Positions 30,001 through 64,000 of a DNA stretch of 64,000 nucleotides are shown in pieces. This DNA is from Laetmonice hystrix. Lineage: Eukaryota. The number at the start of each line of letters is the position of its first letter. The stretch's first letter is position 1. Where the stretch lies: positions 8,930,001 to 8,994,000 of the forward strand of contig OZ249436.1 in the NCBI GenBank assembly GCA_965235115.1. The letters run 5' to 3'. Made by a program: the position numbers and the translations under genes. Under the pieces are notes generated by a model that was not told the origin of the DNA, ran no database searches, and saw nothing but the letters and a program-made list of their open reading frames with translations.

Positions 30001-30459
30001 AAAGGCGAACAACGTCATTTGCCTATGTTAATTAAACCTTTACGGCAAACAGTCACTGGGACTACCGTACAACGGTGTCGGACGCTTACAGATGGTCAGT
30101 AGGGGACACAGATTATATGGGGGTAAATGATGGACGAAACGGATGGCCTGCCTCCTGGACAATAAAGGCATGAAAACATGAAACATGAGGCGTCCCTACA
30201 TTTCTGGCTACAGTTGTATAGAAGTAAGCAGTACAGTGATGCCAAAGATTACAGGGAGGCCAAACAGTACAGTGAGGAATCCCTACAAGGTCCTGCATTG
30301 CCTAATACCCAAGCAAACACTACAGTGAGGCCGAACAGTACAGTGAGGCCGAACAGTACAGTGAGGCCAAATAGTATACTGTGAGGCCAAGCACTACGAG
30401 AGGCTAATCAGTACTCTGGGAAGTCTCTACATCTTCTCGGCTGGCCTACTACCCATGCA
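1..30459. repeat. Large-monomer tandem satellite, segment 1 (~36 monomers of 848/866 bp; A-B-C higher-order repeat of 2,562 bp)
   Basis: Anchor GTACGAGACCTATAGA recurs at 1, 849, 1715, 2563, 3411, 4277, 5125... (848, 866, 848 spacing). Short ORFs in the track recur at +2562. The array runs off the left edge of the window. Confidence 0.98.
1366..1530 (+). repeat. Internal 18-bp subrepeat (CAGTACAGTGAGGCCRAA) cluster of the satellite monomer; this copy is an example, the cluster is present in every full monomer
   Basis: CAGTACAGTGAGGCCGAA tandem copies. B-type monomers have one extra copy, which explains 866 vs 848 bp and the TVRPNS repeats in the spurious ORFs. Confidence 0.93.
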
Positions 30460-30587
30460 GACTAGTAATGGAGTAACGACGCACGTTTAAAAGCCCCGTG
30501 GAAATCCCTCTAATAATAACCTAAAAGAAGACGAAGGGACAGTGAACAAATACGGTTGATACAGATTTGGAACTTGTGTAAGTCAAA

Positions 30588-31895
30588 ATGCCTAAGAGAG
30601 ATGAAAATTGTCGGAAAACAAGAGGAAACGTGACGATAGAAGAAAACGTGAGCGATAATGGGGGAGATGATGATGGTGCCGACATACGCCAAATGATAAG
30701 ACAGCTGCAGGCGACAGTCATTTCTGAGGTAGATGGCCTGAGAAAACTGATTAATGATCAGAATGCAGAACTACGAGATAATTTAGAAGAAATCAAGAAG
30801 TCGGTTACAGATTCCCAATGCGAAATTGTTGAACTAAAAGACATAAACAAGAAACAGCAAGCGGAGATAGACGAGCTCAAAGAAGACCTGAGACAGACGA
30901 ACCATAAAATGGACACCATTCATGCCTATGTTAAAAAAGTGGACACTAATCAGCTGAAACATGAATCCTACACCCGTCAGTATAATATAATACTCTCAGG
31001 GATTGAAGAGAAAGAGCAAGAAGATATAGGACGGACTGTGATCAAACTAATATCGGAGGACTTTCAGGTGAACGTAGGAACAGCCGACTTCGACAAGATA
31101 CACCGCTATGGACGATCGTGGAACGGCAAACCAAGGCCTGTCATAGCAAAATGTTACTCTCTTACAACAAGGGACAGGATACTAAAGGCAAGAACACGAG
31201 GGCAACAACATGGAAATAGTAGAATCTTCATTAGTGAAGATTTCCCTGAGGAGATACGGTTCCAGAGAGCTGATCTACGGACGGTTGCTAACAATGCCAA
31301 ATACCTGGGCCACACAGCGAGTCTGAAGGGAGACACAGTTAATATTGATGGTCAAAGCTATAAGTATCGGGACTTAGATCTCCTATCGCCAGATCTGTCA
31401 CTAGCAGCTGCAAAAACTGTAAGTACGGAAACCAGCATTGCTTTCCAAGGAAAGCACAACCCCCTGAGTAACTTTTACCCGTGTCAAATAAAAGATGCTA
31501 ATGGGCATATCTACAGTAGTGCGGAACAATTGTACCAAGTAAGGAAAGCCAAATACATTGGTAGAGATGACATCGCGGCTAAGATGCTGAGCGAGAATGA
31601 CCCATTGACCATCAAAAGACTGGGAGACAATATAAAGGTGCCCAGGGGCAATGACTGGGAAACTGCAAAACTGGACATCATGCACATTACGGCAAAAGAT
31701 AAATTTTCACAGACTCCCGAACTGAAACAAATCTTGTTAGAAACTGGAACAAAAAACTTAGTTCATGCAACTCCAGACCGTTTTTGGGGATGCGGAAGTT
31801 ATCTCCACTCTGAAGAAATAAAGCAGAGCAGTTGGACAGGAAGGAATCATATGGGGAAAATTCTAGCTACAGTTAGGCAAGAACTTACAAACTAA
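30588..31895 (+). CDS. LINE ORF1p (435 aa): N-terminal coiled coil, L1-ORF1-like RRM, C-terminal NADAR (YbiA/DUF1768) domain
   Basis: Heptad-rich aa ~30-125. RRM motifs RQYNIILSGIEE, DKIHRYGR, PRPVIAK, IFISEDFPEEIR. From aa ~285: LSNFYP, YSSAEQLYQVRKA, KDKFSQTPELKQILLETG, LVHATPDRFWGCG, GRNHMGKILATVRQEL, colinear with NADAR/YbiA motifs (SNF, sEhyfQaqK, KFeQh.eL...LL.T, lvE...D.yWG, G.N.LG..LmelRe.L). Confidence 0.9.
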   Translation: MPKRDENCRKTRGNVTIEENVSDNGGDDDGADIRQMIRQLQATVISEVDGLRKLINDQNAELRDNLEEIKKSVTDSQCEIVELKDINKKQQAEIDELKEDLRQTNHKMDTIHAYVKKVDTNQLKHESYTRQYNIILSGIEEKEQEDIGRTVIKLISEDFQVNVGTADFDKIHRYGRSWNGKPRPVIAKCYSLTTRDRILKARTRGQQHGNSRIFISEDFPEEIRFQRADLRTVANNAKYLGHTASLKGDTVNIDGQSYKYRDLDLLSPDLSLAAAKTVSTETSIAFQGKHNPLSNFYPCQIKDANGHIYSSAEQLYQVRKAKYIGRDDIAAKMLSENDPLTIKRLGDNIKVPRGNDWETAKLDIMHITAKDKFSQTPELKQILLETGTKNLVHATPDRFWGCGSYLHSEEIKQSSWTGRNHMGKILATVRQELTN

Positions 31896-32125
31896 TATGA
31901 TGCATATAGTATCTAACCCTTTGAAGTCAAACCAATATGATGCATATAGTATAACCCTAAGTCAAAATATATTAAAGTAATATTTAAATACTGGGGGAGG
32001 AACACTAGGGGCTTGTATAGGCATTATGTGTAAGACATTAATTAAGATAACATATGATGTGAAAAATGTATATTTTAGCATAATTTATGTACTGCTACTT
32101 GGTAATATCCATGTAATAAATATGG

Positions 32126-35100
32126 ATGACAAACAGAGTAATGGATGACACTAGTCTATGTATAAAATGCCAAGTCAAAAATGCTATATGTGAAGGTCTT
32201 TGTGATGATTGTGCCATATTCTGTCTTCCATTCAGAGACCTTGAATGTCTCATGGAATGTTTGTCAGGTTTTGATAAAGATATTTTTGATACAACAAACT
32301 ACCTAGCAGATATATCTGATACTTTCCTAGATAATTGGACAAATCAAAGGTTAAAGGCCATATCAAGCTCAACATGTCAGTATTATAAGGACTGTGATTT
32401 TATTGAGTATGCAGCCCAGCATGATATACTACTAGCATTTAATATAAGAAGTATACCAAAAAACTTAGATTCTTTTATAACTGAGTTTTATGAGGCTCTG
32501 AGTAACAAGTTAAGTATAGTATGCTTTGTCGAGACATGGTACAACCATGATACCATAGAGGTATACAAACTAATCAATTATAATGGTACACATGTCTATC
32601 GGTCAGGCAAAAAAGGTGGGGGAGTATCTATCTTTGTTAAAAACAATATTAATTACACTAGATTGGAGAGGTTTTGCATTAACGAGTTGTATATGGAAAG
32701 TGTTGCTATTCATATAAAGTCCAGTGAAATATATAGTGAAAAAAATATCATTGTGATTAATATTTACAGACCTCCAGGTGCAAAACTTGATCAATTCATG
32801 ACACAAATGGAACAGATGCTAGATGAGCTGTCTGATCATGAAGAATATATATATCTTGTAGGAGATTTTAATATAGATTTGACAAAATATGGCTCCGGTA
32901 TTGAAAATCATTCTTCCAGGTTTATTAATCTGGGCCTAAGTTACGATTTTAAGCCAATCATATCCCTTCCTACTAGATTGGGTAAAAACAGCAATACCAC
33001 ATTAGATAACATTTTGACAAATTATCCCGGAAACAACCAATCTGGAGTTATACAAACCAGCATTTCGGATCATTTTCCAATCTTTGTGAGTTTGCACCAA
33101 AAAAACATACTAGAACCTACCAAGGAAAAAAACAAAGCCTGGAACTATAATAAAACAACAATTACTGAATATTGTAAACTTATCGATGAAATGGAGACCA
33201 CAGATGTTAGAAATTATTCTACCCAAGAATTATATACAAATTTTAATAAACAAATGGATGAGGCACACAAAAAGGTTTTTACTAAAGTTGAAAAAAACAA
33301 AAACTATTCTAATAGGCTCCCATGGGTTGGTGGAAAATTAAAAAATATGATACGACAAAAAAATAGGCTCTATATTAAATGGAAAAAATATAAAACTCAG
33401 GTTAATCACAAAAATTATAAACAATATAAAACAATGTGTGCGAGAGAACTTAAAAGTGCAGAGCGAGAATATTATCGTTATAAAATCCAACATGCTCATA
33501 ATAGTAGCAGGCAACAGTGGGGTATAATTAATCAACTATTGGGGAAGACAATTAATTATAAAATTCCTAAACTCCCTCTTAAAGATAATGAAGAGATTAT
33601 GAATTACACTCAATTAGCTAATGCGTTCAACTTATATTTCTCTAATATAGGTTGCAAACTCGCAAACTTAATCCCTACTACAACTTTAAACTATTTAGAC
33701 TGCATGGATCCACCGATTGAACAAAGTCTATTTCTAGCACCAGTTGTTAACCAAGAAATTATTACTATATTTAACAATATAAGAACAAACGCTGCAGGCA
33801 TCGACCATATTTCTAAAAAAATGATCAAGAATAAATACCACACTGTAGCAAATCACATAGTACACATTATAAACTGTAGTTTTTTAGAAGGTGTTGTGCC
33901 AAAAGAATTAAAAATTGCTAAAGTCAACCCCTTTTTTAAATCAGGTGATAAAGATATTCTAGGTAATTATAGACCTATTGCAATACTACCATTATTTTCT
34001 AAAATCTGGGAAAAATTATTTTATGATCGGCTTCTTAAATTTTTATCCCATAAGAACATACTATATAATTATCAATATGGGTTTAGAAAAAAACATTCTA
34101 CAGAGCATGCTGTAATGGCACTTCAAAACTATGTAAACGCTGCTTTCGAGAGAGGTGAATATGTTGTTGGAATATTTCTCGACCTATCGAAAGCATTCGA
34201 TACATTAAATAAAGACATTTTAATCAACAAATTACATCGATATGGAATTAGAGGTACACCTAGTAAATGGATAAGAAGTTATTTAACAGAGCGCTTACAA
34301 CAAACAATATTAACTAGGAAAGATATACTATCAAATAGCAGTCCCATTGACATAGGCGTTCCGCAGGGCTCAATATTGGGGCCGATTCTTTTCCTGTTAT
34401 ATATAAATGATCTACCGAATTTTGATGAGGAAGTTTTCACACTAATGTTCGCTGACGATAGTAGTCTTTTCTTATCGGGGCCCAACCTAGATGAATTAAT
34501 GTTTAAGGCACAAAATATAATTGTTAAAGTTAAAGCCTGGATAGATACAAATAAACTATCGCTAAACCTTAACAAAACAAAATACATGATATTTTCAAAA
34601 AGAGAGATAATTAGGAACTATAACTATATAAGTATCGAAGAATCCAGAATCGAACGAGTCACTCATATTAAATTTTTAGGTTTCACAATTCAAGAAAATT
34701 TAAAATGGTCTTTCCATGTAAATAATATATTGCAGAAAATCTCAAAAGGCATAGCAATACTTAGGAAAGTTAGAAAATACCTACATAAAGATGCTTTGTT
34801 GAGTATTTATTATTCATTTATATACCCTTATATTCAGAGGGGACTTATTATTTGGGGCAGTGACTTAAAAAGCAATATGGTTGATATTTTGCGAAAACAA
34901 AAACAAGCAGTTCGTATTATAGCTGGAATAAAGTATAGAGAACACACTGTACCCCATTTCAAACAACTAGAGATACTACCAATCGACCTACTCTACAAGC
35001 AACAATTAATCATTCTAATGTATAATGTTTTCCATCAAAGGTGTCCAGACCATATATCAAAATTATTTAAATTAAATCGAGAAGTAAATACCAATACAAA

Positions 35101-35293
35101 AACGAGACAAGCAGACGACTATTTTATCCCAAAAGCAAAATGTAAGACAACCATTAATAGTCCAAAAATCCAAGCTCCAAAATTGTATAATAATTATAAA
35201 AACCAGTTAGATTTTCACAACTCTTTAGGAGCACAGAAACGTATGGTTAAAAAGATGTTATTAAACTCATATACAGAAAATCTGGATAGTTAA
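32126..35293 (+). CDS. LINE ORF2p (1055 aa): apurinic-like endonuclease + reverse transcriptase
   Basis: APE motifs FNIRS, FVETW, GGGVSIFVK, IYRPP, VGDFNID, TLDNILTN, SDHFPIF. RT motifs NYRPIAILP, QYGFRK, FLDLSKAFD, GVPQGSILGP, FADD, KFLG. Uninterrupted reading frame. Confidence 0.97.
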   Translation: MTNRVMDDTSLCIKCQVKNAICEGLCDDCAIFCLPFRDLECLMECLSGFDKDIFDTTNYLADISDTFLDNWTNQRLKAISSSTCQYYKDCDFIEYAAQHDILLAFNIRSIPKNLDSFITEFYEALSNKLSIVCFVETWYNHDTIEVYKLINYNGTHVYRSGKKGGGVSIFVKNNINYTRLERFCINELYMESVAIHIKSSEIYSEKNIIVINIYRPPGAKLDQFMTQMEQMLDELSDHEEYIYLVGDFNIDLTKYGSGIENHSSRFINLGLSYDFKPIISLPTRLGKNSNTTLDNILTNYPGNNQSGVIQTSISDHFPIFVSLHQKNILEPTKEKNKAWNYNKTTITEYCKLIDEMETTDVRNYSTQELYTNFNKQMDEAHKKVFTKVEKNKNYSNRLPWVGGKLKNMIRQKNRLYIKWKKYKTQVNHKNYKQYKTMCARELKSAEREYYRYKIQHAHNSSRQQWGIINQLLGKTINYKIPKLPLKDNEEIMNYTQLANAFNLYFSNIGCKLANLIPTTTLNYLDCMDPPIEQSLFLAPVVNQEIITIFNNIRTNAAGIDHISKKMIKNKYHTVANHIVHIINCSFLEGVVPKELKIAKVNPFFKSGDKDILGNYRPIAILPLFSKIWEKLFYDRLLKFLSHKNILYNYQYGFRKKHSTEHAVMALQNYVNAAFERGEYVVGIFLDLSKAFDTLNKDILINKLHRYGIRGTPSKWIRSYLTERLQQTILTRKDILSNSSPIDIGVPQGSILGPILFLLYINDLPNFDEEVFTLMFADDSSLFLSGPNLDELMFKAQNIIVKVKAWIDTNKLSLNLNKTKYMIFSKREIIRNYNYISIEESRIERVTHIKFLGFTIQENLKWSFHVNNILQKISKGIAILRKVRKYLHKDALLSIYYSFIYPYIQRGLIIWGSDLKSNMVDILRKQKQAVRIIAGIKYREHTVPHFKQLEILPIDLLYKQQLIILMYNVFHQRCPDHISKLFKLNREVNTNTKTRQADDYFIPKAKCKTTINSPKIQAPKLYNNYKNQLDFHNSLGAQKRMVKKMLLNSYTENLDS

Positions 35294-35588
35294 GCCAAGA
35301 GCTTGTATTGTTAGACTTATTCTATAGCTTGGCACTTAAAAGGCAGCTGACTGTTTTTATTAAGATGGTTTCCATATTACCAGTAACTTTATTAAATATA
35401 ATACTATGTTATGCTCACATCGATGTACATATGTAAGAATGTTTGGGTCAGGGAGAAACTTTATGTACAAAAGTTTAGGTATAGAGGTAGGGGTGTGTGT
35501 TATTCCATATTAACAATCTCTTTCTGATACTGAACGTATTCGCAGGTTGTGATTAACTTCATTATTATTGTTAAAAGTGACACATGTT

Positions 35589-35621
35589 TGAGCACCAATA
35601 AGCCATGGGCTTCAGTGTTCA
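35589..35621 (+). other. Putative 3'UTR stem-loop of the LINE (candidate RT recognition signal), copy 1
   Basis: TGAGCAC...AAGCC-ATG-GGCTT...GTGTTCA: two nested stems ~45 nt upstream of the poly(A). 3' stem-loops are known in CR1/L2-group LINEs. Confidence 0.55.
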
Positions 35622-35665
35622 GTAATATAAATCACCGATTGAAAATGTATGACACTTGAGATGAA

Positions 35666-35694
<29 letters not shown>

Positions 35695-35698
<4 letters not shown>

Positions 35699-38600
35699 GT
35701 TCACTGAGGTAGTGGAAATGAAAGATATAGGCGAGGGGCATCTAATGTTAAAATTTGGAGAAGATACTCAAATGGGAAGTAGATGTCTCACAACCATTTA
35801 TCTATAGCGAACGTACGAGACCTATAGAGGTGACAGTTATACATCTGGCCTAACAATCATAATTTTGGGGTCGTAATTTCAATTTGACGTATCAAAAATG
35901 AAGCCATTTTTCGCTTATCATTGTCTCTCCCATAACCGCCATACGTGCCTGCCAGCCCGGCCAGGTATAAGGTGGTGATTACATGGGTAGCCGGAAGGTA
36001 GCAGTGCAGTCGATGGGAGGCCGCTTCAGTACTGCACCCTGGTGTTTGCTCGCAACATCTCTGTCATCTGTTTCTATTTGGGGATGGGATATCTGATATA
36101 GAAAGGCGAACAACGTCATTTGCCAATGTTAATTAAACCTTTACGGCAAACAGTCACTGGGACTACCGTACAGCGGTGTCTGAGGCTTACAGATGGTCAG
36201 TAGGGGACACAGATTATATGGGGGTAAATGATGGACGAAACGGATGGCCTGCCTCCTGGACAATAAAGGCATGGAAACATGAAACATCAGGCGTCCCTAC
36301 ATTTCTGGCTACAATTGTATAGAAGCAAACCGTACAGTGATGCCAAAGAGTACAGGGAGGCCAAACAGTACAGTGAGGAATCCCTACAAGGTCCTGCATT
36401 GCCTAATACCCAAGCAAACACTACAGTGAGGCCGAACAGTACAGTGAGGCCAAATAGTATACTGTGAGGCCAAGCACTACGAGAGGCTAATCAGTACTCT
36501 GGGAGGTCTCTACATCTTATCGGCTGGCCTACTACCCATGCAAACAGTTCAGTGAGGTAGTGGAAATGAAAGATATAGGCGAGGGGCATCTAATGTTAAA
36601 ATTTGGAGAAGATACTCAAATGGGAAGTAGATATCTCACAACCATTTATCTGTAGCGAACGTACGAGACCTATAGAAGTGACAGTTATACATCTGGCCTA
36701 ACAATCATAATTTTGGGGTCGTAATTTCAATTTGACGTATCAAAAATGAAGCCATTTTTCGCTTATCATTGTCTCCCCCATAAGCGCCATAGGTGCCTGC
36801 CAGCCCGGCCAGGTACAAGGTGGTGATTCCATGGTTAGCCGTAAGGTCGCAGTGCAGTCGGTGGGAGGCCGCTTCAGTACTGCACCCTGGTGTTTGCTTC
36901 CAACCTCTCTGTCATCTCTTTCTACTGGGGGATGGGATATCTGATATAGAAAGGCGAACAACGTCATTTGCCATTTTTAATTAAGCCTTTACGGCAAACA
37001 TCCACTGGGTCTACCATACAACGGTGTCGGACGCTTACAGGTGGTCAGTTGGGGACACAGATTACATGGGGGTAAATGATGGACGAAACGGATGGCCTGC
37101 CTCCTGGACAATAAAGGCGTGGAAACATTAAACACGAGGCGTCCCTACATTTCTGGATACAGTTGTATAGAAGCAAGCAGTACAGTGATGCCAAAGAGTA
37201 CAGGGAGGCCAAACAGTACAGTGAGGAATCCCTACAAGGTGCTGTATTGCCTAATACCCAAGCAAACACTACAGTGAGGCCGAAGAGTACAGTGAGGCCA
37301 ATTAGTATACTGTGAGGCCAAGCACTACGAGAGGCCAATCAATCCTCTGGGAAGTCTCTACATCTTATCGGCTGGCCTACTACCCATGCAAATAGTTCAC
37401 TGAGGTAGTGGAAATGAAAGATATAGGCGAGGGGCATCTAATGTTAAAATTTGGAGAAGATACTCAAATGGGAAGTAGATGTCTCACAACCATTTATCTA
37501 TAGCGAACGTACGAGACCTATAGAGGTGACAGTTATACATCTGGCCTAACAATCATAATTTTGGGGTCGTAATTTCAATTTGACGTATCAAAAATGAAGC
37601 CATTTTTCGCTTATCATTGTCTCTCCCATAAGCGCCATAGGTGCCTACCAGCCCGGCCAGGTATAAGGTGGTGATTACATGGGTAGCCGGAAGGTAGCAG
37701 TGCAGTCGGTGGAAGGCCGCTTCAGTACTGCACCCTGGTGGTTGCTTGCAACATCTCTGTGATCTGTTTCTATTTGGGGATGCGATATCTGATATAGAAA
37801 GGCGAACAACGTCATTTGCCAATGTTAATTAAACCTTTACGGCAAACAGTCACTGGGACTACCGTACAACGGTGTCGGACGCTTACAGATGGTCAGTAGG
37901 GGACACAGATTATATGGGGGTAAATGATGGACGAAACGGATGGCCTGCCTCCTGGACAATAAAGGCATGAAAACATGAAACATGAGGCGTCCCTACATTT
38001 CTGGCTACAGTTGTATAGAAGTAAGCAGTACAGTGATGCCAAAGATTACAGGGAGGCCAAACAGTACAGTGAGGAATCCCTACAAGGTCCTGCATTGCCT
38101 AATACCCAAGCAAACACTACAGTGAGGCCGAACAGTACAGTGAGGCCGAACAGTACAGTGAGGCCAAATAGTATACTGTGAGGCCAAGCACTACGAGAGG
38201 CTAATCAGTACTCTGGGAAGTCTCTACATCTTCTCGGCTGGCCTACTACCCATGCAAATCGTTCACTGAGGTAGTGGAAATGAAAGATATAGGCGAGGGG
38301 CATCTAATGTTAAAATTTGGAGAAGATACTCAAATGGGAAGTAGATGTCTCACAACCATTTATCTATAGCGAACGTACGAGACCTATAGAGGTGACAGTT
38401 ATACATCTGGCCTAACAATCATAATTTTGGGGTCGTAATTTCAATTTGACGTATCAAAAATGAAGCCATTTTTCGCTTATCATTGTCTCCCCCATAAGCG
38501 CCATAGGTGCCTGCCAGTCCGGCCAGGTACAAGGTGGTGATTCCATGGTTAGCAGTAAGGTCGCAGTGCAGTCGGTGAGAGGCCGCTTCAGTACTGCACC

Positions 38601-41600
38601 CTGGTGTTTGCTTCCAACCTCTCTGTCATCTCTTTCTACTGGGGGATGGGATATCTGATATAGAAAGGCGAACAACGTCATTTGCCATTTTTAATTAAGC
38701 CTTTACGGCAAACATCCACTGGGTCTACCATACAACGGTGTCGGACGCTTACAGGTGGTCAGTTGGGGACACAGATTACATGGGGGTAAATGATGGACGA
38801 AACGGATTGCCTGCCTCCTGGACAATAAAGGCGTGGAAACATTAAACACGAGGCGTCCCTACATTTCTGGATACAGTTGTATAGAAGCAAGCAGTACAGT
38901 GATGCCAAAGAGTACAGGGAGGCCAAACAGTACAGTGAGGAATCCCTACAAGGTGCTGTATTGCCTAATACCCAAGCAAACACTACAGTGAGGCCGAACA
39001 GTACAGTGAGGCCAATTAGTATACTGTGAGGCCAAGCACTACGAGAGGCCAATCAATCCTCTGGGAAGTCTCTACATCTTATCGGCTGGCCTACTACCCA
39101 TGCAAATAGTTCACTGAGGTAGTGGAAATGAAAGATATAGGCGAGGGGCATCTAATGTTAAAATTTGGAGAAGATACTCAAATGGGAAGTAGATGTCTCA
39201 CAACCATTTATCTATAGCGAACGTACGAGACCTATAGAGGTGACAGTTATACATCTGGCCTAACAATCATAATTTTGGGGTCGTAATTTCAATTTGACGT
39301 ATCAAAAATGAAGCCATTTTTCGCTTATCATTGTCTCTCCCATAAGCGCCATAGGTGCCTACCAGCCCGGCCAGGTATAAGGTGGTGATTACATGGGTAG
39401 CCGGAAGGTAGCAGTGCAGTCGGTGGAAGGCCGCTTCAGTACTGCACCCTGGTGGTTGCTTGCAACATCTCTGTGATCTGTTTCTATTTGGGGATGCGAT
39501 ATCTGATATAGAAAGGCGAACAACGTCATTTGCCTATGTTAATTAAACCTTTACGGCAAACAGTCACTGGGACTACCGTACAACGGTGTCGGACGCTTAC
39601 AGATGGTCAGTAGGGGACACAGATTATATGGGGGTAAATGATGGACGAAACGGATGGCCTGCCTCCTGGACAATAAAGGCATGAAAACATGAAACATGAG
39701 GCGTCCCTACATTTCTGGCTACAGTTGTATAGAAGTAAGCAGTACAGTGATGCCAAAGATTACAGGGAGGCCAAACAGTACAGTGAGGAATCCCTACAAG
39801 GTCCTGCATTGCCTAATACCCAAGCAAACACTACAGTGAGGCCGAACAGTACAGTGAGGCCGAACAGTACAGTGAGGCCAAATAGTATACTGTGAGGCCA
39901 AGCACTACGAGAGGCTAATCAGTACTCTGGGAAGTCTCTACATCTTCTCGGCTGGCCTACTACCCATGCAAATCGTTCACTGAGGTAGTGGAAATGAAAG
40001 ATATAGGCGAGGGGCATCTAATGTTAAAATTTGGAGAAGATACTCAAATGGGAAGTAGATGTCTCACAACCATTTATCTATAGCGAACGTACGAGACCTA
40101 TAGAGGTGACAGTTATACATCTGGCCTAACAATCATAATTTTGGGGTCGTAATTTCAATTTGACGTATCAAAAATGAAGCCATTTTTCGCTTATCATTGT
40201 CTCTCCCATAACCGCCATACGTGCCTGCCAGCCCGGCCAGGTATAAGGTGGTGATTACATGGGTAGCCGGAAGGTAGCAGTGCAGTCGATGGGAGGCCGC
40301 TTCAGTACTGCACCCTGGTGTTTGCTCGCAACATCTCTGTCATCTGTTTCTATTTGGGGATGGGATATCTGATATAGAAAGGCGAACAACGTCATTTGCC
40401 AATGTTAATTAAACCTTTACGGCAAACAGTCACTGGGACTACCGTACAGCGGTGTCTGACGCTTACAGATGGTCAGTAGGGGACACAGATTATATGGGGG
40501 TAAATGATGGACGAAACGGATGGCCTGCCTCCTGGACAATAAAGGCATGGAAACATGAAACATCAGGCGTCCCTACATTTCTGGCTACAGTTGTATAGAA
40601 GCAAACCGTACAGTGATGCCAAAGAGTACAGGGAGGCCAAACAGTACAGTGAGGAATCCCTACAAGGTCCTGCATTGCCTAATACCCAAGCAAACACTAC
40701 AGTGAGGCCGAACAGTACAGTGAGGCCAAATAGTATACTGTGAGGCCAAGCACTACGAGAGGCTAATCAGTACTCTGGGAAGTCTCTACATCTTCTCGGC
40801 TGGCCTACTACCCATGCAAATCGTTCACTGAGGTAGTGGAAATGAAAGATATAGGCGAGGGGCATCTAATGTTAAAATTTGGAGAAGATACTCAAATGGG
40901 AAGTAGATGTCTCACAACCATTTATCTATAGCGAACGTACGAGACCTATAGAGGTGACAGTTATACATCTGGCCTAACAATCATAATTTTGGGGTCGTAA
41001 TTTCAATTTGACGTATCAAAAATGAAGCCATTTTTCGCTTATCATTGTCTCTCCCATAACCGCCATACGTGCCTGCCAGCCCGGCCAGGTATAAGGTGGT
41101 GATTACATGGGTAGCCGGAAGGTAGCAGTGCAGTCGATGGGAGGCCGCTTCAGTACTGCACCCTGGTGTTTGCTCGCAACATCTCTGTCATCTGTTTCTA
41201 TTTGGGGATGGGATATCTGATATAGAAAGGCGAACAACGTCATTTGCCAATGTTAATTAAACCTTTACGGCAAACAGTCACTGGGACTACCGTACAGCGG
41301 TGTCTGACGCTTACAGATGGTCAGTAGGGGACACAGATTATATGGGGGTAAATGATGGACGAAACGGATGGCCTGCCTCCTGGACAATAAAGGCATGGAA
41401 ACATTAAACATGAGGCGTCCCTACATTTCTGGCTACAGTTGTATAGAAGCAAACCGTACAGTGATGCCAAAGAGTACAGGGAGGCCAAACAGTACAGTGA
41501 GGAATCCCTACAAGGTCCTGCATTGCCTAATACCCAAGCAGACACTACAGTGAGGCCGAACAGTACAATTGGCCAAATAGTATACTGTGAGGCCAAGCAC

Positions 41601-43379
41601 TACGAGAGGCTAATCAGTACTCTGGGAAGTCTCTACATCTTATCGGCTGGCCTACTACCCATGCAAACAGTTCAGTGAGGTAGTGGAAATGAAAGATATA
41701 GGCGAGGGGCATCTAATGTTAAAATTTGGTGAAGATACTCAAATGGGAAGTAGATATCTCACAACCATTTATCTGTAGCGAACGTACGAGACCTATAGAG
41801 GTGACAATTATACATCTGGCCTAACAATCATAATTTTGGGGTCGTAATTTCAATTTGACGTATCAAAAATGAAGCCATTTTTCGCTTATCATTGTCTCTC
41901 CCATAAGCGCCATAGGTGCCTACCAGCCCGGCCAGGTATAAGGTGGTGATTACATGGGTAGCCGGAAGGTAGCAGTGCAGTCGGTGGAAGGCCGCTTCAG
42001 TACTGCACCCTGGTGTTTGCTTCCAACCTCTCTGTCATCTCTTTCTTCTGGGGGATGGGATATCTGATATAGAAAGGCGAACAACGTCATTTGCCATTTT
42101 TAATTAAGCCTTTACGGCAAACATCCACTGGGTCTACCATACAACGGTGTCGGACGCTTACAGGTGGTCAGTTGGGGACACAGATTACATGGGGGTAAAT
42201 GATGGACGAAACGGATTGCCTGCCTCCTGGACAATAAAGGCGTGGAAACATTAAACACGAGGCGTCCCTACATTTCTGGATACAGTTGTATAGAAGCAAG
42301 CAGTACAGTGATGCCAAAGAGTACAGGGAGGCCAAACAGTACAGTGAGGAATCCCTACAAGGTGCTGTATTGCCTAATACCCAAGCAAACACTACAGTGA
42401 GGCCGAACAGTACAGTGAGGCCAATTAGTATACTGTGAGGCCAAGCACTACGAGAGGCCAATCAATCCTCTGGGAAGTCTCTACATCTTATCGGCTGGCC
42501 TACTACCCATGCAAATAGTTCACTGAGGTAGTGGAAATGAAAGATATAGGCGAGGGGCATCTAATGTTAAAATTTGGAGAAGATACTCAAATGGGAAGTA
42601 GATGTCTCACAACCATTTATCTATAGCGAACGTACGAGACCTATAGAGGTGACAGTTATACATCTGGCCTAACAATCATAATTTTGGGGTCGTAATTTCA
42701 ATTTGACGTATCAAAAATGAAGCCATTTTTCGCTTATCTTTGTCTCTCCCATAAGCGCCATAGGTGCCTACCAGCCCGGCCAGGTATAAGGTGGTGATTA
42801 CATGGGTAGCCGGAAGGTAGCAGTGCAGTCGGTGGAAGGCCGCTTCAGTACTGCACCCTGGTTGTTGCTTGCAACATCTCTGTGATCTGTGTCTATTTGG
42901 GGATGCGATATCTGATATAGAAAGGCGAACAACGTCATTTGCCTATGTTAATTAAACCTTTACGGCAAACAGTCACTGGGACTACCGTACAACGGTGTCG
43001 GACGCTTACAGATGGTCAGTAGGGGACACAGATTATATGGGGGTAAATGATGGACGAAACGGATGGCCTGCCTCCTGGACAATAAAGGCATGAAAACATG
43101 AAACATGAGGCGTCCCTACATTTCTGGCTACAGTTGTATAGAAGTAAGCAGTACAGTGATGCCAAAGATTACAGGGAGGCCAAACAGTACAGTGAGGAAT
43201 CCCTACAAGGTCCTGCATTGCCTAATACCCAAGCAAACACTACAGTGAGGCCGAACAGTACAGTGAGGCCGAACAGTACAGTGAGGCCAAATAGTATACT
43301 GTGAGGCCAAGCACTACGAGAGGCTAATCAGTACTCTGGGAAGTCTCTACATCTTCTCGGCTGGCCTACTACCCATGCA
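35695..43379. repeat. 848/866-bp satellite, segment 2 (~9 monomers)
   Basis: Anchors at 35813, 36661, 37509, 38375, 39223, 40089, 40937, 41784, 42632. Confidence 0.98.
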
Positions 43380-43507
43380 GACTAGTAATGGAGTAACGAC
43401 GCACGTTTAAAAGCCCCGTGGAAATCCCTCTAATAATAACCTAAAAGAAGACGAAGGGACAGTGAACAAATACGGTTGATACAGATTTGGAACTTGTGTA
43501 AGTCAAA

Positions 43508-44820
43508 ATGCCTAAGAGAGATGAAAATTGTCGGAAAACAAGAGGAAACGTGACGATAGAAGAAAACGTGAGCGATAATGGGGGAGATGATGATGGTGCC
43601 GACATACGCCAAATGATAAGACAGCTGCAGGCGACAGTCATTTCTGAGGTAGATGGCCTGAGAAAACTGATTAATGATCAGAATGCAGAACTACGAGATA
43701 ATTTAGAAGAAATCAAGAAGTCGGTTACAGATTCCCAATGCGAAATTGTTGAACTAAAAGACATAGGCTAAACAAGAAACAGCAAGCGGAGATAGACGAG
43801 CTCAAAGAAGACCTGAGACAGACGAACCATAAAATGGACACCATTCATGCCTATGTTAAAAAAGTGGACACTAATCAGCTGAAACATGAATCCTACACCC
43901 GTCAGTATAATATAATACTCTCAGGGATTGAAGAGAAAGAGCAAGAAGATATAGGACGGACTGTGATCAAACTAATATCGGAGGACTTTCAGGTGAACGT
44001 AGGAACAGCCGACTTCGACAAGATACACCGCTATGGACGATCGTGGAACGGCAAACCAAGGCCTGTCATAGCAAAATGTTACTCTCTTACAACAAGGGAC
44101 AGGATACTAAAGGCAAGAACACGAGGGCAACAACATGGAAATAGTAGAATCTTCATTAGTGAAGATTTCCCTGAGGAGATACGGTTCCAGAGAGCTGATC
44201 TACGGACGGTTGCTAACAATGCCAAATACCTGGGCCACACAGCGAGTCTGAAGGGAGACACAGTTAATATTGATGGTCAAAGCTATAAGTATCGGGACTT
44301 AGATCTCCTATCGCCAGATCTGTCACTAGCAGCTGCAAAAACTGTAAGTACGGAAACCAGCATTGCTTTCCAAGGAAAGCACAACCCCCTGAGTAACTTT
44401 TACCCGTGTCAAATAAAAGATGCTAATGGGCATATCTACAGTAGTGCGGAACAATTGTACCAAGTAAGGAAAGCCAAATACATTGGTAGAGATGACATCG
44501 CGGCTAAGATGCTGAGCGAGAATGACCCATTGACCATCAAAAGACTGGGAGACAATATAAAGGTGCCCAGGGGCAATGACTGGGAAACTGCAAAACTGGA
44601 CATCATGCACATTACGGCAAAAGATAAATTTTCACAGACTCCCGAACTGAAACAAATCTTGTTAGAAACTGGAACAAAAAACTTAGTTCATGCAACTCCA
44701 GACCGTTTTTGGGGATGCGGAAGTTATCTCCACTCTGAAGAAATAAAGCAGAGCAGTTGGACAGGAAGGAATCATATGGGGAAAATTCTAGCTACAGTTA
44801 GGCAAGAACTTACAAACTAA
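43508..44820 (+). pseudogene. Frameshifted ORF1 (coiled coil-RRM-NADAR) of LINE copy 2
   Basis: GGCTA inserted after GACATA gives a stop after 87 aa (43508-43771). The remainder stays open from 43834 (328 aa, RRM+NADAR, identical to copy 1). Confidence 0.92.
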
Positions 44821-45050
44821 TATGATGCATATAGTATCTAACCCTTTGAAGTCAAACCAATATGATGCATATAGTATAACCCTAAGTCAAAATATATTAA
44901 AGTAATATTTAAATACTGGGGGAGGAACACTAGGGGCTTGTATAGGCATTATGTGTAAGACATTAATTAAGATAACATATGATGTGAAAAATGTATATTT
45001 TAGCATAATTTATGTACTGCTACTTGGTAATATCCATGTAATAAATATGG

Positions 45051-48000
45051 ATGACAAACAGAGTAATGGATGACACTAGTCTATGTATAAAATGCCAAGT
45101 CAAAAATGCTATATGTGAAGGTCTTTGTGATGATTGTGCCATATTCTGTCTTCCATTCAGAGACCTTGAATGTCTCATGGAATGTTTGTCAGGTTTTGAT
45201 AAAGATATTTTTGATACAACAAACTACCTAGCAGATATATCTGATACTTTCCTAGATAATTGGACAAATCAAAGGTTAAAGGCCATATCAAGCTCAACAT
45301 GTCAGTATTATAAGGACTGTGATTTTATTGAGTATGCAGCCCAGCATGATATACTACTAGCATTTAATATAAGAAGTATACCAAAAAACTTAGATTCTTT
45401 TATAACTGAGTTTTATGAGGCTCTGAGTAACAAGTTAAGTATAGTATGCTTTGTCGAGACATGGTACAACCATGATACCATAGAGGTATACAAACTAATC
45501 AATTATAATGGTACACATGTCTATCGGTCAGGCAAAAAAGGTGGGGGAGTATCTATCTTTGTTAAAAACAATATTAATTACACTAGATTGGAGAGGTTTT
45601 GCATTAACGAGTTGTATATGGAAAGTGTTGCTATTCATATCAAGTCCAGTGAAATATATAGTGAAAAAAATATCATTGTGATTAATATTTACAGACCTCC
45701 AGGTGCAAAACTTGATCAATTCATGACACAAATGGAACAGATGCTAGATGAGCTGTCTGATCATGAAGAATATATATATCTTGTAGGAGATTTTAATATA
45801 GATTTGACAAAATATGGCTCCGGTATTGAAAATCATTCTTCCAGGTTTATTAATCTGGGCCTAAGTTACGATTTTAAGCCAATCATATCCCTTCCTACTA
45901 GATTGGGTAAAAACAGCAATACCACATTAGATAACATTTTGACAAATTATCCCGGAAACAACCAATCTGGAGTTATACAAACCAGCATTTCGGATCATTT
46001 TCCAATCTTTGTGAGTTTGCACCAAAAAAACATACTAGAACCTACCAAGGAAAAAAACAAAGCCTGGAACTATAATAAAACAACAATTACTGAATATTGT
46101 AAACTTATCGATGAAATGGAGACCACAGATGTTAGAAATTATTCTACCCAAGAATTATATACAAATTTTAATAAACAAATGGATGAGGCACACAAAAAGG
46201 TTTTTACTAAAGTTGAAAAAAACAAAAACTATTCTAATAGGCTCCCATGGGTTGGTGGAAAATTAAAAAATATGATACGACAAAAAAATAGGCTCTATAT
46301 TAAATGGAAAAAATATAAAACTCAGGTTAATCACAAAAATTATAAACAATATAAAACAATGTGTGCGAGAGAACTTAAAAGTGCAGAGCGAGAATATTAT
46401 CGTTATAAAATCCAACATGCTCATAATAGTAGCAGGCAACAGTGGGGTATAATTAATCAACTATTGGGGAAGACAATTAATTATAAAATTCCTAAACTCC
46501 CTCTTAAAGATAATGAAGAGATTATGAATTACACTCAATTAGCTAATGCGTTCAACTTATATTTCTCTAATATAGGTTGCAAACTCGCAAACTTAATCCC
46601 TACTACAACTTTAAACTATTTAGACTGCATGGATCCACCGATTGAACAAAGTCTATTTCTAGCACCAGTTGTTAACCAAGAAATTATTACTATATTTAAC
46701 AATATAAGAACAAACGCTGCAGGCATCGACCATATTTCTAAAAAAATGATCAAGAATAAATACCACACTGTAGCAAATCACATAGTACACATTATAAACT
46801 GTAGTTTTTTAGAAGGTGTTGTGCCAAAAGAATTAAAAATTGCTAAAGTCAACCCCTTTTTTAAATCAGGTGATAAAGATATTCTAGGTAATTATAGACC
46901 TATTGCAATACTACCATTATTTTCTAAAATCTGGGAAAAATTATTTTATGATCGGCTTCTTAAATTTTTATCCCATAAGAACATACTATATAATTATCAA
47001 TATGGGTTTAGAAAAAAACATTCTACAGAGCATGCTGTAATGGCACTTCAAAACTATGTAAACGCTGCTTTCGAGAGAGGTGAATATGTTGTTGGAATAT
47101 TTCTCGACCTATCGAAAGCATTCGATACATTAAATAAAGACATTTTAATCAACAAATTACATCGATATGGAATTAGAGGTACACCTAGTAAATGGATAAG
47201 AAGTTATTTAACAGAGCGCTTACAACAAACAATATTAACTAGGAAAGATATACTATCAAATAGCAGTCCCATTGACATAGGCGTTCCGCAGGGCTCAATA
47301 TTGGGGCCGATTCTTTTCCTGTTATATATAAATGATCTACCGAATTTTGATGAGGAAGTTTTCACACTAATGTTCGCTGACGATAGTAGTCTTTTCTTAT
47401 CGGGGCCCAACCTAGATGAATTAATGTTTAAGGCACAAAATATAATTGTTAAAGTTAAAGCCTGGATAGATACAAATAAACTATCGCTAAACCTTAACAA
47501 AACAAAATACATGATATTTTCAAAAAGAGAGATAATTAGGAACTATAACTATATAAGTATCGAAGAATCCAGAATCGAACGAGTCACTCATATTAAATTT
47601 TTAGGTTTCACAATTCAAGAAAATTTAAAATGGTCTTTCCATGTAAATAATATATTGCAGAAAATCTCAAAAGGCATAGCAATACTTAGGAAAGTTAGAA
47701 AATACCTACATAAAGATGCTTTGTTGAGTATTTATTATTCATTTATATACCCTTATATTCAGAGGGGACTTATTATTTGGGGCAGTGACTTAAAAAGCAA
47801 TATGGTTGATATTTTGCGAAAACAAAAACAAGCAGTTCGTATTATAGCTGGAATAAAGTATAGAGAACACACTGTACCCCATTTCAAACAACTAGAGATA
47901 CTACCAATCGACCTACTCTACAAGCAACAATTAATCATTCTAATGTATAATGTTTTCCATCAAAGGTGTCCAGACCATATATCAAAATTATTTAAATTAA

Positions 48001-48218
48001 ATCGAGAAGTAAATACCAATACAAAAACGAGACAAGCAGACGACTATTTTATCCCAAAAGCAAAATGTAAGACAACCATTAATAGTCCAAAAATCCAAGC
48101 TCCAAAATTGTATAATAATTATAAAAACCAGTTAGATTTTCACAACTCTTTAGGAGCACAGAAACGTATGGTTAAAAAGATGTTATTAAACTCATATACA
48201 GAAAATCTGGATAGTTAA
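45051..48218 (+). CDS. LINE ORF2p (1055 aa) APE endonuclease-reverse transcriptase, copy 2
   Basis: Protein appears identical to 32126-35293 in the ORF track. Confidence 0.97.
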   Translation: MTNRVMDDTSLCIKCQVKNAICEGLCDDCAIFCLPFRDLECLMECLSGFDKDIFDTTNYLADISDTFLDNWTNQRLKAISSSTCQYYKDCDFIEYAAQHDILLAFNIRSIPKNLDSFITEFYEALSNKLSIVCFVETWYNHDTIEVYKLINYNGTHVYRSGKKGGGVSIFVKNNINYTRLERFCINELYMESVAIHIKSSEIYSEKNIIVINIYRPPGAKLDQFMTQMEQMLDELSDHEEYIYLVGDFNIDLTKYGSGIENHSSRFINLGLSYDFKPIISLPTRLGKNSNTTLDNILTNYPGNNQSGVIQTSISDHFPIFVSLHQKNILEPTKEKNKAWNYNKTTITEYCKLIDEMETTDVRNYSTQELYTNFNKQMDEAHKKVFTKVEKNKNYSNRLPWVGGKLKNMIRQKNRLYIKWKKYKTQVNHKNYKQYKTMCARELKSAEREYYRYKIQHAHNSSRQQWGIINQLLGKTINYKIPKLPLKDNEEIMNYTQLANAFNLYFSNIGCKLANLIPTTTLNYLDCMDPPIEQSLFLAPVVNQEIITIFNNIRTNAAGIDHISKKMIKNKYHTVANHIVHIINCSFLEGVVPKELKIAKVNPFFKSGDKDILGNYRPIAILPLFSKIWEKLFYDRLLKFLSHKNILYNYQYGFRKKHSTEHAVMALQNYVNAAFERGEYVVGIFLDLSKAFDTLNKDILINKLHRYGIRGTPSKWIRSYLTERLQQTILTRKDILSNSSPIDIGVPQGSILGPILFLLYINDLPNFDEEVFTLMFADDSSLFLSGPNLDELMFKAQNIIVKVKAWIDTNKLSLNLNKTKYMIFSKREIIRNYNYISIEESRIERVTHIKFLGFTIQENLKWSFHVNNILQKISKGIAILRKVRKYLHKDALLSIYYSFIYPYIQRGLIIWGSDLKSNMVDILRKQKQAVRIIAGIKYREHTVPHFKQLEILPIDLLYKQQLIILMYNVFHQRCPDHISKLFKLNREVNTNTKTRQADDYFIPKAKCKTTINSPKIQAPKLYNNYKNQLDFHNSLGAQKRMVKKMLLNSYTENLDS

Positions 48219-48590
48219 GCCAAGAGCTTGTATTGTTAGACTTATTCTATAGCTTGGCACTTAAAAGGCAGCTGACTGTTTTTATTAAGATGGTTTCCAT
48301 ATTACCAGTAACTTTATTAAATATAATACTATGTTATGCTCACATCGATGTACATATGTAAGAATGTTTGGGTCAGGGAGAAACTTTATGTACAAAAGTT
48401 TAGGTATAGAGGTAGGGGTGTGTGTTATTCCATATTAACAATCTCTTTCTGATACTGAACGTATTCGCAGGTTGTGATTAACTTCATTATTATTGTTAAA
48501 AGTGACACATGTTTGAGCACCAATAAGCCATGGGCTTCAGTGTTCAGTAATATAAATCACCGATTGAAAATGTATGACACTTGAGATGAA

Positions 48591-48620
<30 letters not shown>

Positions 48621-48624
<4 letters not shown>

Positions 48625-60396: not shown

Positions 60397-60673
60397 AGCC
60401 CTTACTGTAGTGTTTGCTTTAGTCTAAGCTCAGTCAATACATGTAGAGAGCCCTCACTGTAGTGTTTGCTCGAGTATAGATCTAATGCCAGTCAATCCAC
60501 GTAGGGAGCCCTCACTGTAGTGTTTGCTCGAGTATAAGGCCTGCCATTACATGTAGGTCGCTCTCATTGTATACTGTTAGCTGGAGAAGAAGGCCGGTTT
60601 GTCAATGTTGGCAGCCCTCACTGTAGTGCTTCCTGATCCAGTCTAAGGCCGGTCAATACCTCTAGGCAGCCCT
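60394..60673 (-). repeat. 52-bp minisatellite, inverted block (~5 units)
   Basis: Repeated GCCCTCACTGTAGTGTTTGCTCGAG is the reverse complement of the unit at 62847-64000. Confidence 0.92.
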
Positions 60674-62852: not shown

Positions 62853-64000
62853 GATGGCTCCCTAGATGTATTGACCGGCCTAAGGCTGGAGCAAACACTA
62901 CAGTGAGGGCTGCCAACATGGACTGACGGGCCTTATACTCGAGCAAACACTACAGTGAGGGCTCCCTACGTGGATTGACTGGAATTATACTCGAGTAAAC
63001 ACTACAGTGAGGGTTCCCTACATGTATTCAGTGGCGTCATACTCGAGCAAACACTACGGTGAGGGCTCCTTAGAGGTATTGACCGGCCTAAGACTGGAGC
63101 AAGCACTACAGACGTGAGGGCTGCCAACATGGACTGACGGGCCTTATCCTCGAGCAAACACTACAGTGAGAGCGACCTACATGTAATGACAGGACTTATA
63201 CTCGAGCAAACACTACAGTGAGGGCTCCCTATGTGGATTGACTGGAATTATACTCGAGTAAACACTACAGTGAGGGCTCTCTACATGTATTGACTGAGCT
63301 TAGACTGAAGCAAACACTACAGTGAGGGCTCCCTACATGTAGTGACTGGCCTCAGACTGCAGCAAACACTACAGCTAGTGAGGACTCTCTACATGTACTG
63401 ACTGGCCTTATACTCGAGTAAACACTAGAGTGAGGGCTGCCCACATGGACTGACTGGCCTTATACTCGAGCAAACACTACAGTGGGGGCTGCCTACATGT
63501 ACTGTCTGGCCTTAAACTCGAGCAAACACTAAAGTGAGGACTCTCTATATGTACTGACTGGCCTTATACTCGAGCAAACACTACAGTGAGGCTGCCCACA
63601 TGGACTGACTGGTCTGAATTATACTCGAGCAAACACTACAGTGAGGGTTACCTACATGTATTGACTGGCCTCAGACTGCAGCAAACACTACAGTGAGGGC
63701 AGCCAACATGTATTGATGGCCTTAAACTCGAGCAAAAACTACAGTGAGGAGTTTCTACATGTATTGACTGAGCTTCGACTGATGCAAACACTGCAGTGAG
63801 GGCTCCCTACATGTATTGACTGGCCTCAGACTGCAGCAAACACTACAGCTAGTGAGGACTCTCTACATGTACTGACTGGCCTTATACTCGAGTAAACACT
63901 AGAGTGAGGGCTGCCCACATGGACTGACTGGCCTTATACTCGAGCAAACACTACAGTGGGGGCTGCCTACATGTACTGTCTGGCCTTAAACTCGAGCAAA
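62847..64000 (+). repeat. 52-bp minisatellite (approx. TACAGTGAGGGCTCCCTACATGTAYTGACTGGCCTTATACTCGAGCAAACAC), ~22 diverged units, continues past the window end
   Basis: GAG(C/T)AAACAC at 62941, 62993, 63045 (52-bp period). Units contain palindromes CTCGAG and TACATGTA. Confidence 0.95.

Follow-up and report, generated by a model that had tools for sequence, protein, structure and literature searches.

NADAR proteins hydrolyse guanine-linked ADP-ribose (ADPr) on DNA (PMC11543638, PMC11125620), guanosine-ADPr on RNA but not ADP-ribosylation of phosphate ends (PMC11833690) and, in a set that includes a sponge NADAR, cytidine-ADPr (PMC12945103). In T4-like phages an orphan NADAR reverses the DarT1 modification of phage DNA and defeats DarTG1 (PMC11825919). 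The domain has also been noted in retroelements, within the Pol of Ectocarpus Gypsy elements and, as an apparent YbiA-family NADAR, in the open reading frame 1 (ORF1) proteins of several Repbase 'Tx1' long interspersed element (LINE) families of the oyster Crassostrea gigas (PMC12477816, Genome Biol 2025). LINE ORF1 protein (ORF1p) is usually viewed as an RNA chaperone with few accessory modules, the known ones being the CCHC zinc knuckle, PHD and esterase, and NADAR is not among the ORF1 types in the available part of PMC4120745. Here we analyse a 64,000-nucleotide stretch of Laetmonice hystrix DNA (the window; assembly GCA_965235115.1, contig OZ249436.1, positions 8,930,001 to 8,994,000, forward strand), which holds an intact, recently mobile LINE of the type encoding an apurinic/apyrimidinic endonuclease (APE). 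Nucleotides 31434-31892, at the 3' end of its ORF1, encode a NADAR domain.

A complete NADAR domain at the ORF1p C-terminus had been proposed from the letters of the window, and the proposal is confirmed. Pfam NADAR (PF08719) matches ORF1p aa 289-433 at 119.9 bits (cut-off 35.1; E 1.6e-34) and covers profile positions 9-162 of 163. Among solved structures, phmmer finds the Phytophthora nicotianae NADAR 8BAU (E 9.2e-14) and Escherichia coli YbiA 2B3W (E 4.1e-8). The NADAR motifs quoted in the original prediction are all found in the translation, as are E313, K320 and D397 at the residue numbers it gave, and W400 at residue 400. An AlphaFold2 model of ORF1p, built with 15 relatives, has a mean predicted local distance difference test (pLDDT) score of 84.6, mostly above 90 in the NADAR part, and Foldseek ranks 8BAU first for it (E 2.7e-12), followed by YbiA (5.8e-8) and the human L1 ORF1p trimer 2YKO (5.2e-7). 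Superposed with VIA-align, the predicted model matches 8BAU at Z 21.1 (rmsd 2.2 Å over 162 residues, model 269-435, 31% identity) and YbiA 2B3W at Z 16.0 (28% identity), whereas the DarT1-linked G. lovleyi NADAR 8BAT reaches only Z 7.4. The Pfam match, the predicted model's YbiA fold, in which small sheets flank core helices (PMC11125620), and the active-site Glu and Lys (E313 and K320) together place the domain in the NADAR superfamily.

The coiled coil and L1-type RNA recognition motif (RRM) predicted upstream of the domain are likewise borne out, and there is, in addition, a C-terminal domain (CTD). Residues 90-277 of the predicted model align with human L1 ORF1p (2YKO_B, chain 114-322) at Z 13.3, residues 129-218 with the L1 ORF1p RRM 2W7A at Z 11.0, and residues 131-276 with the RRM-CTD structure 2LDY at Z 9.4; Pfam PF02994 reported no match on ORF1p at E<=0.01. 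As the model aligns with both L1 ORF1p and 8BAU/YbiA, ORF1p is a complete type II (L1-type) protein followed by a C-terminal NADAR of the stand-alone type. Coiled coil, RRM and CTD are thus arranged as in human L1 ORF1p (2YKO) and type II ORF1 generally, to which the window protein adds a C-terminal domain of enzymatic type.

Whether this architecture was already catalogued had been left open. The fusion is present in Repbase and is briefly noted in PMC12477816, the sole paper to mention it in the literature searched on NADAR, YbiA or DUF1768 with retrotransposons or transposable elements. The LINE ORF1-NADAR architecture is therefore already known, if barely studied, and the present element is no new architecture; the observation itself stands. 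Like the window element, the oyster 'Tx1' elements carry NADAR inside the ORF1 of an APE-type invertebrate LINE, and the two probably belong to the same superfamily of elements, the Repbase sequences having been compared by description only. The window family differs from the oyster 'Tx1' entry in its insertion at unrelated sites. The available text of PMC12477816 gives the oyster elements one paragraph and one alignment, and neither copy numbers nor a structure, an analysis of selection or any Glu/His variation is reported there for them. Ectocarpus Gypsy elements similarly carry a retroelement-borne YbiA-type NADAR, in a Pol order paralleled by a second element of the present genome (L031, below), but differ from the window LINE in element class, host kingdom and carrier protein, which is Pol and not ORF1p. 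Our additions are a measure of how large the family is, evidence that it is under selection, a model of the structure, a mapping of ligand contacts, the His393 variant and an animal long terminal repeat (LTR) element with NADAR.

The family proves to be old, large and under constraint. In the 627-Mb assembly of the host genome, a search with ORF1p gave 888 candidates. The 97 that were scored each reach E<=5.5e-52; most are 31-42% identical, and 78 lack a stop inside the match. The Pfam NADAR search gave 741 candidates, and each of the 150 scored exceeds the cut-off; the open frames with these matches are mostly 400-480 aa long. Loci L001-L073 (L031 excluded) yielded 59 ORF1s of at least 340 aa with NADAR motifs, 55 of them distinct and forming 38 families at <90% identity. 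Across the 703 family pairs mean pairwise identity falls from 0.405 for NADAR through 0.353 (RRM) and 0.329 (CTD) to 0.208 for the N-terminus and coiled coil combined, and NADAR is therefore the best-conserved part of ORF1p. S294, N295, E313, W357, K372, F373 and W400 are invariant in 55/55 intact genomic ORF1s, K320 is Lys in 50 and Arg in five, and D397 is Asp in 52. A domain that was neutral or decayed across the family, one of the outcomes named beforehand as refuting the proposal, is not what these 55 intact ORF1s display. An ORF begins downstream of ORF1 in most of the loci read, and it is an APE and reverse transcriptase (RT) ORF2 in both further loci scanned with Pfam (L032, L033).

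The ratio of nonsynonymous (dN) to synonymous (dS) substitution, proposed as a measure of constraint, was informative in part. For pairs about 60% identical NADAR dN is low (0.21-0.34), but dS is saturated (NG86 fails or gives 2.5-3.1), such that omega, at about 0.09 where computable, is a rough value and no clean one could be had. YN00 mostly failed, and within-family pairs are near identical or mosaic. In the pair L045/L047 dN is 0.196 before NADAR and 0.003 within it, and in L016/L034 the corresponding values are 0.002 and 0.081. As read from these sequences, the mosaics show recombination swapping NADAR modules between LINE families, and they agree with the modular, recombining evolution of ORF1 described in PMC4120745.

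Public data extend the family well beyond this genome. A profile of 15 ORF1-NADAR proteins, with counts given as cluster representatives, matched 72,991 at E<=0.001, 36,171 at <=1e-10 and 3,471 at <=1e-30, of which the looser thresholds will take in NADAR-only and RRM-only proteins. The search for further ORF1s with RRM and NADAR that had been suggested thus returned thousands of related proteins, and the best 150 matches are nearly all single end-to-end alignments of 400-470 aa. Of 149 public relatives retrieved, 140 are full length; E313 is present in 140/140, K320 in 125 (Arg in seven) and Glu393 in 138, and His393 in none. Similar NADAR clusters of 415-489 aa in a protein atlas have few labelled members, which are annelids, a lead only. 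Close stand-alone relatives amount to three short proteins at E<=0.001 among 10 candidates, with 33% identity and one carrying the name 'ribA/ribD-fused uncharacterized protein', and are too few for tracing the origin of the domain. In five public proteins (P0152, P0155, P0200, P0229 and P0240) the only Pfam domains are 3-7 NADARs in tandem, as in one of 4,240 aa that has seven; such proteins may be SNA-3-type host genes or gene models merged across repeats. In another (P0007, 578 aa) a CCHC-like zinc knuckle stands in place of the L1-type RRM-CTD, followed by NADAR at aa 226-371 and a long low-complexity tail, which suggests, from this one sequence, that NADAR has been joined to other gag/ORF1 types too.

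The active site of the window NADAR was mapped by reading the phmmer alignment to 8BAU against the ligand contacts of PMC11543638. The chain index was taken as the number in the paper plus 2, an offset accepted because it fits E43/K50 and the aligned chain range. Eight ligand contacts are kept, including those to ribose and phosphate (8BAU/ORF1p: E43/E313, K50/K320, K75/K343, G78/G346, W89/W357, R93/K361, D130/D397, W133/W400). The active-site Glu and Lys correspond to E88 and K95 in the E. coli C7 NADAR. E313 and D397 had originally been proposed as the catalytic pair. E313 corresponds to the active-site E43, while D397 lines up with D130, which contacts phosphate through water; the residue to note is H393, which had been missed. 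At the third catalytic position YbiA-type NADARs have Glu, those linked to DarT1 have Asp and phage NADARs have His (PMC11125620, PMC11543638). At position 393 the 55 intact genomic ORF1s have Glu in 47, His in seven and Lys in one. The CAT codon for His393 is common to 5/5 copies of the window family, including decayed copies at 91% and 96% identity, whereas the closest relative from outside the genome (P0001, 56% identical) has Glu. With Glu in the last strand as the mark of the YbiA family, the superfamily of elements is YbiA-type and the window family is a His variant.

8BAU and YbiA, the closest structure and sequence matches, have the Glu-Lys core and the Asp/Trp motif in common with the window protein but are single-domain cellular proteins with Glu, where the window has His393 and three changed contacts. 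The DarT1-associated antitoxins (BC4488 family; 8BAT, E. coli C7) belong to the same superfamily, presumably with the same chemistry. They are distinguished by a catalytic Asp and by extensions of the fold, according to the available descriptions, and the window domain differs from them in its His, in the weak match to G. lovleyi NADAR, in having an APE-RT ORF2 as its neighbour and in the negative search of the host genome for DarT (below). T4 gp30.3 (AdfN) is a mobile-element orphan NADAR that shares with the window family a His at the third catalytic position, and it has been shown to remove guanine-ADPr from the phage's own nucleic acid (PMC11825919, PMC11125620). The likeness is drawn by description only: the phage NADAR is free-standing and is set against the DarT1 toxin, whereas the window NADAR forms part of an RNA chaperone, and the host-genome searches described below found no writer enzyme.

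The same genome carries NADAR in a second class of retroelement. A Gypsy-like LTR element with identical 304-bp LTRs has a gag-like ORF of 521 aa preceding a Pol ORF of 1,657 aa, which comprises protease (aa 82-170), NADAR (349-490, E 1.2e-29), RT, RNase H and integrase; a second copy, 98% identical, lies on contig C8 (L076). NADAR therefore occurs in both LINE ORF1p and Gypsy-like Pol of one genome. In the available text of PMC12477816 NADAR in an LTR Pol is described for Ectocarpus only, and no search was aimed at NADAR in LTR elements of animals. The catalytic position of the Gypsy-like domain is likewise occupied by His. A maximum-likelihood tree of 43 NADAR domains, built quickly, places the window family as sister to the Glu-type P0001 (SH-aLRT 99) and groups L057, L059 and L060 in a separate His clade (support 98), and the LTR domain falls elsewhere, unsupported. 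The free tree requires a minimum of four Glu/His/Lys state changes, three to His and one to Lys, but a tree forcing all His rows together is not rejected by the approximately unbiased test (p-AU 0.121). Repeated switching from Glu to His is for this reason not established, and on these sequences it is likely but not proven.

Given the conserved catalytic core, the constraint on the domain and its presence in two retroelement classes, an enzymatic role in retrotransposition is the best reading of our results. Its most concrete version, formed by analogy with characterised NADARs, is an eraser carried on the ribonucleoprotein (RNP). Here ORF1p would be an L1-type chaperone extended by a selected YbiA-like NADAR acting as an N-glycosidase on the RNP, and the domain would be kept by selection for retrotransposition; we advance the two together, tentatively, as a proposal that falls a little short of probable. 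By coating the element's own RNA in cis, ORF1p would concentrate NADAR domains on the RNP, with three domains per trimer if ORF1p trimerises like L1 ORF1p. The domain may then rid LINE RNA, nascent cDNA or nicked target DNA of base-linked ADP-ribose, as guanine- or cytosine-ADPr, or of a similar adduct; such adducts, if left, would block reverse transcription. It is in relieving this block that we infer a benefit to transposition. The RNP eraser put forward in the original prediction is supported in part: it retains a real and selected ORF1p domain that would be carried in the RNP, an E313 found in every intact genomic and full-length public protein compared, two element classes and the precedent of other NADARs, but has to accommodate a His in place of Glu at position 393.

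Several points weigh against an eraser on the RNP. Six Pfam models of ADP-ribosyltransferases (ARTs) found no match in the 627-Mb genome at E<=0.001, scored exon by exon and without a positive control; the models were Scabin-like, DarT (PF14487), Enterotoxin_a, ADPrib_exo_Tox, ART and Tox-ART-HYD1. We take the Scabin-like model, of which the name alone was confirmed, to cover the pierisin/CARP-1 group. The host response to retroelements by ADP-ribosylation that the original prediction took to be implied has thus left no sign in this search, although the exon-by-exon scoring and lack of a positive control mean that these negatives weaken the idea of a host defence without excluding it. Three ADP-ribose contacts of 8BAU are changed in the window protein (R79/D347, Y84/P352, D86/G354), in a loop where the alignment is uncertain, and because of these differences the adenine/phosphate end of the pocket, and hence the substrate, may differ from that of 8BAU. 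H393 itself replaces the Glu that defines the YbiA family (E125 of 8BAU). Mutation of the equivalent residue in the E. coli C7 NADAR abolishes efficient hydrolysis (PMC11543638), and while the His-type T4 NADAR is active (PMC11125620, PMC11833690), it is markedly weaker than the E. coli C7 NADAR on RNA guanosine-ADPr (PMC11833690). Lastly, the dN/dS values are not clean measures of selection, since the within-family pairs examined are mosaic.

In a stricter version of the eraser, retroelement RNA or cDNA would be ADP-ribosylated as a means of restriction, by the host itself or by a resident microbe, and the ORF1p NADAR would remove the mark, which would make the element a eukaryotic parallel of AdfN against DarT1. 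The phage precedent (PMC11825919) speaks for it, as does the occurrence of NADAR in LINE ORF1p and Gypsy-like Pol here and in Ectocarpus Gypsy Pol (PMC12477816), and an arms race could give three changes to His such as those on the free tree. These changes may nevertheless trace to a single His clade (p-AU 0.121), none of the six ART-family models matched in the host genome (scored exon by exon, no positive control), and no demonstration of ADP-ribosylated nucleic acid was met for the host or related animals. We consider this counter-defence unlikely. The broader hypothesis that it invites, again by analogy, is an unrecognised invertebrate restriction by base ADP-ribosylation of retroelement RNA or cDNA, countered by competent NADAR erasers in both element classes, with a writer that would lie outside the six ART families and Glu-to-His changes that would mark shifts of substrate in an arms race; this we hold to be doubtful.

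Alternatively, the NADAR fold may serve as a binder of nucleic acid, ADP-ribose or NAD-derived ligands, acting as a reader or scaffold in RNP assembly, at least in the His393 families. The change from Glu to His in the window family is consistent with such a module, given that the family has yet produced several near-identical copies, and so is the alteration of three ligand contacts. The pattern of conservation is instead typical of a working active site, with E313 invariant, K320 nearly so and Glu393 in 47/55 genomic and 138/140 public proteins, and active phage NADARs naturally have His (PMC11125620, PMC11833690), which together make a non-catalytic role improbable.

An enzymatic role apart from defence is also conceivable, in which the domain acts on the element's own transcript, for example on a 5' or 3' nucleotide-derived adduct or in a step linked to splicing or trans-splicing. 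Processing of RNA intermediates is the speculation offered for the Ectocarpus and oyster elements in PMC12477816, a similar role has been suggested for RNA-virus NADARs, and the three-NADAR SNA-3 of C. elegans and trans-splicing are cited in PMC11125620. The fusion to an RNA-binding chaperone and the public proteins with 3-7 NADAR domains fit this idea. No specific RNA substrate is known, however, and the window gives no hint of a processing site, and such a function seems quite unlikely. An accidental passenger, be it a host NADAR exon transduced or mis-joined in one copy or an artefact of gene models or assembly, can be dismissed, as no supporting point was found and the in-frame architecture recurs on many contigs, in 38 families with 55 distinct intact ORF1s between them, and in thousands of public proteins, with an ORF downstream in most loci and APE-RT confirmed in two.

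Whichever reading holds for the window family, no part of ORF1p is better conserved, over dozens of families and thousands of public proteins, than a domain of enzyme type, and the sole nucleic-acid activity demonstrated for NADAR is the erasure of base-linked ADP-ribose. This raises the question of whether invertebrate retroelements must clear their RNA or cDNA of an N-glycosidic adduct, and of who adds it. The question is testable with existing reagents such as ScARP-modified oligonucleotides and DarT1 rescue assays. If the eraser proposal is true, nucleic-acid ADP-ribosylation joins the eukaryotic defences against retroelements; if not, annotation pipelines should recognise the domain as an ORF1 module that is widespread and unexplained.

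Table 1. Features of the two LINE copies in the window and of the Gypsy-like element elsewhere in the genome; positions are those of the window unless a contig is named.
Feature	Position	Strand	Details
Full-length APE-type non-LTR retrotransposon, copy 1	30456..35696	+	5,241 bp, within satellite array; ends set by alignment of the C7 copy and by satellite similarity breaking off and resuming there
Leader			132 nt, 5' of ORF1 in copy 1
ORF1	30588..31895	+	435 aa and a stop codon; N-terminus disordered, then coiled coil, RRM, CTD, NADAR
Long helix, aa 32-130 (L1-type coiled coil)	30681..30977	+	DSSP on predicted model; C-terminal part aligns with 2YKO/2YKP coiled coil (model 83/90-277)
RRM plus CTD, L1-type (type II), aa 131-282	30978..31433	+	Structural alignment of predicted model
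NADAR domain, aa 283-435	31434..31892	+	Pfam, phmmer against PDB, structural alignment
Codons E313 (GAA, 31524-31526) and K320 (AAA, 31545-31547)	31524..31547	+	Counterparts of E43 and K50 in P. nicotianae NADAR
Codon H393 (CAT)	31764..31766	+	Position of YbiA-family catalytic Glu (E125 of 8BAU)
ORF1-ORF2 spacer	31896..32125	+	230 nt
ORF2	32126..35293	+	1055 aa; Cys-rich N-terminal stretch, APE aa 104-320, RT aa 610-855, C-terminal ~200 aa; basis Pfam
3' untranslated region and poly(A) tail	35294..35696	+	33-nt A run 35664-35696
Copy 2, same insertion duplicated with satellite flanks	43376..48622	+	ORF1 split, 43508-43771 and 43834-44820; ORF2 45051-48218 intact
Gypsy-like LTR element, ~9.7 kb	C1:23017504-23027237		L031 3505-10000 plus L075; identical 304-bp LTRs

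The window LINE is identified as an APE-type element by the endonuclease and RT in ORF2, the poly(A) tail and dispersed copies with their own flanks. In ORF2, Pfam matches the AP-endonuclease families PF03372 (E 8.4e-7) and PF14529 (E 9.4e-10) and the RT family PF00078 (E 2e-36). A single-sequence phmmer search of ORF2 against the PDB gave weak matches to R2 and group II RTs only, and human L1 ORF2p was absent even at E<=10. With a 12-sequence ORF2 profile, human L1 ORF2p is the best of all solved chains (E 1.4e-43), collinear from APE to RT over profile positions 63-873. This result is compatible with the L1/Tx1 group but, in a comparison that held no labelled reference LINEs, is not diagnostic of it. 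A search for ORF2 homologues found matches in 7,204 of 7,999 scored candidates, and the sole source name among the 120 listed is 'hypothetical protein'; a cluster look-up of ORF2 relatives gave no names and a protein atlas generic names only. Relatives of ORF2 conserve a CxxC...CxxC stretch upstream of the endonuclease (window 32126-32250), which matches no Pfam family.

Beyond the window, contig C7 carries a copy of the full 5,241 bp at 99.56% identity, with both ORFs open, the identical start nucleotide and unrelated flanking DNA, and it is bounded by a short duplicated AAGTC. Further copies on C10 and C19 are decayed, and the C7, C10 and C19 copies each have their own different flanks. Within the window, copy 2 has a 5-bp insertion in the coiled-coil part of ORF1 (relative to 30843 of copy 1) that leaves ORFs of 87 and 328 aa. 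Copies 1 and 2, together with 1.4 kb and 1.3 kb of satellite flank, are 99.89% identical over 8,006 columns, and because the match runs into the flanks the second block is a duplicate within an array unit of ~12.9 kb rather than an independent insertion. The duplicated piece consists of the LINE insertion and ~7.7 kb of satellite at an offset of ~12.92 kb, and the transposon is now part of a larger repeat unit. The insertion point in the satellite is A-rich, and its 5' junction shows microhomology. We considered and rejected site-specific insertion into the satellite, since the two window copies are one duplicated insertion and the C7 and C19 flanks are unrelated.

A 40-bp unit repeated 2.1 times (31888-31966) begins at the ORF1 stop codon and is present in both window copies. 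An Rfam scan of the window at gathering thresholds found no RNA family, and the GC content of the window is 0.46. Satellite fills nearly the whole window (1-30455, 35697-43375 and 48623-60300), in monomers of ~850-860 bp with 18-bp sub-repeats; its higher-order unit comprises three monomers and 2,562 bp, and the two LINE copies break the array as AT-richer blocks. Three other tandem arrays lie at the window's end. The first (60386-60536) has a unit of 58 bp, the second (60755-62852) repeats a 335-bp unit 6.3 times with 100% identity, and the third (62847-64000) is a 52/263-bp array.

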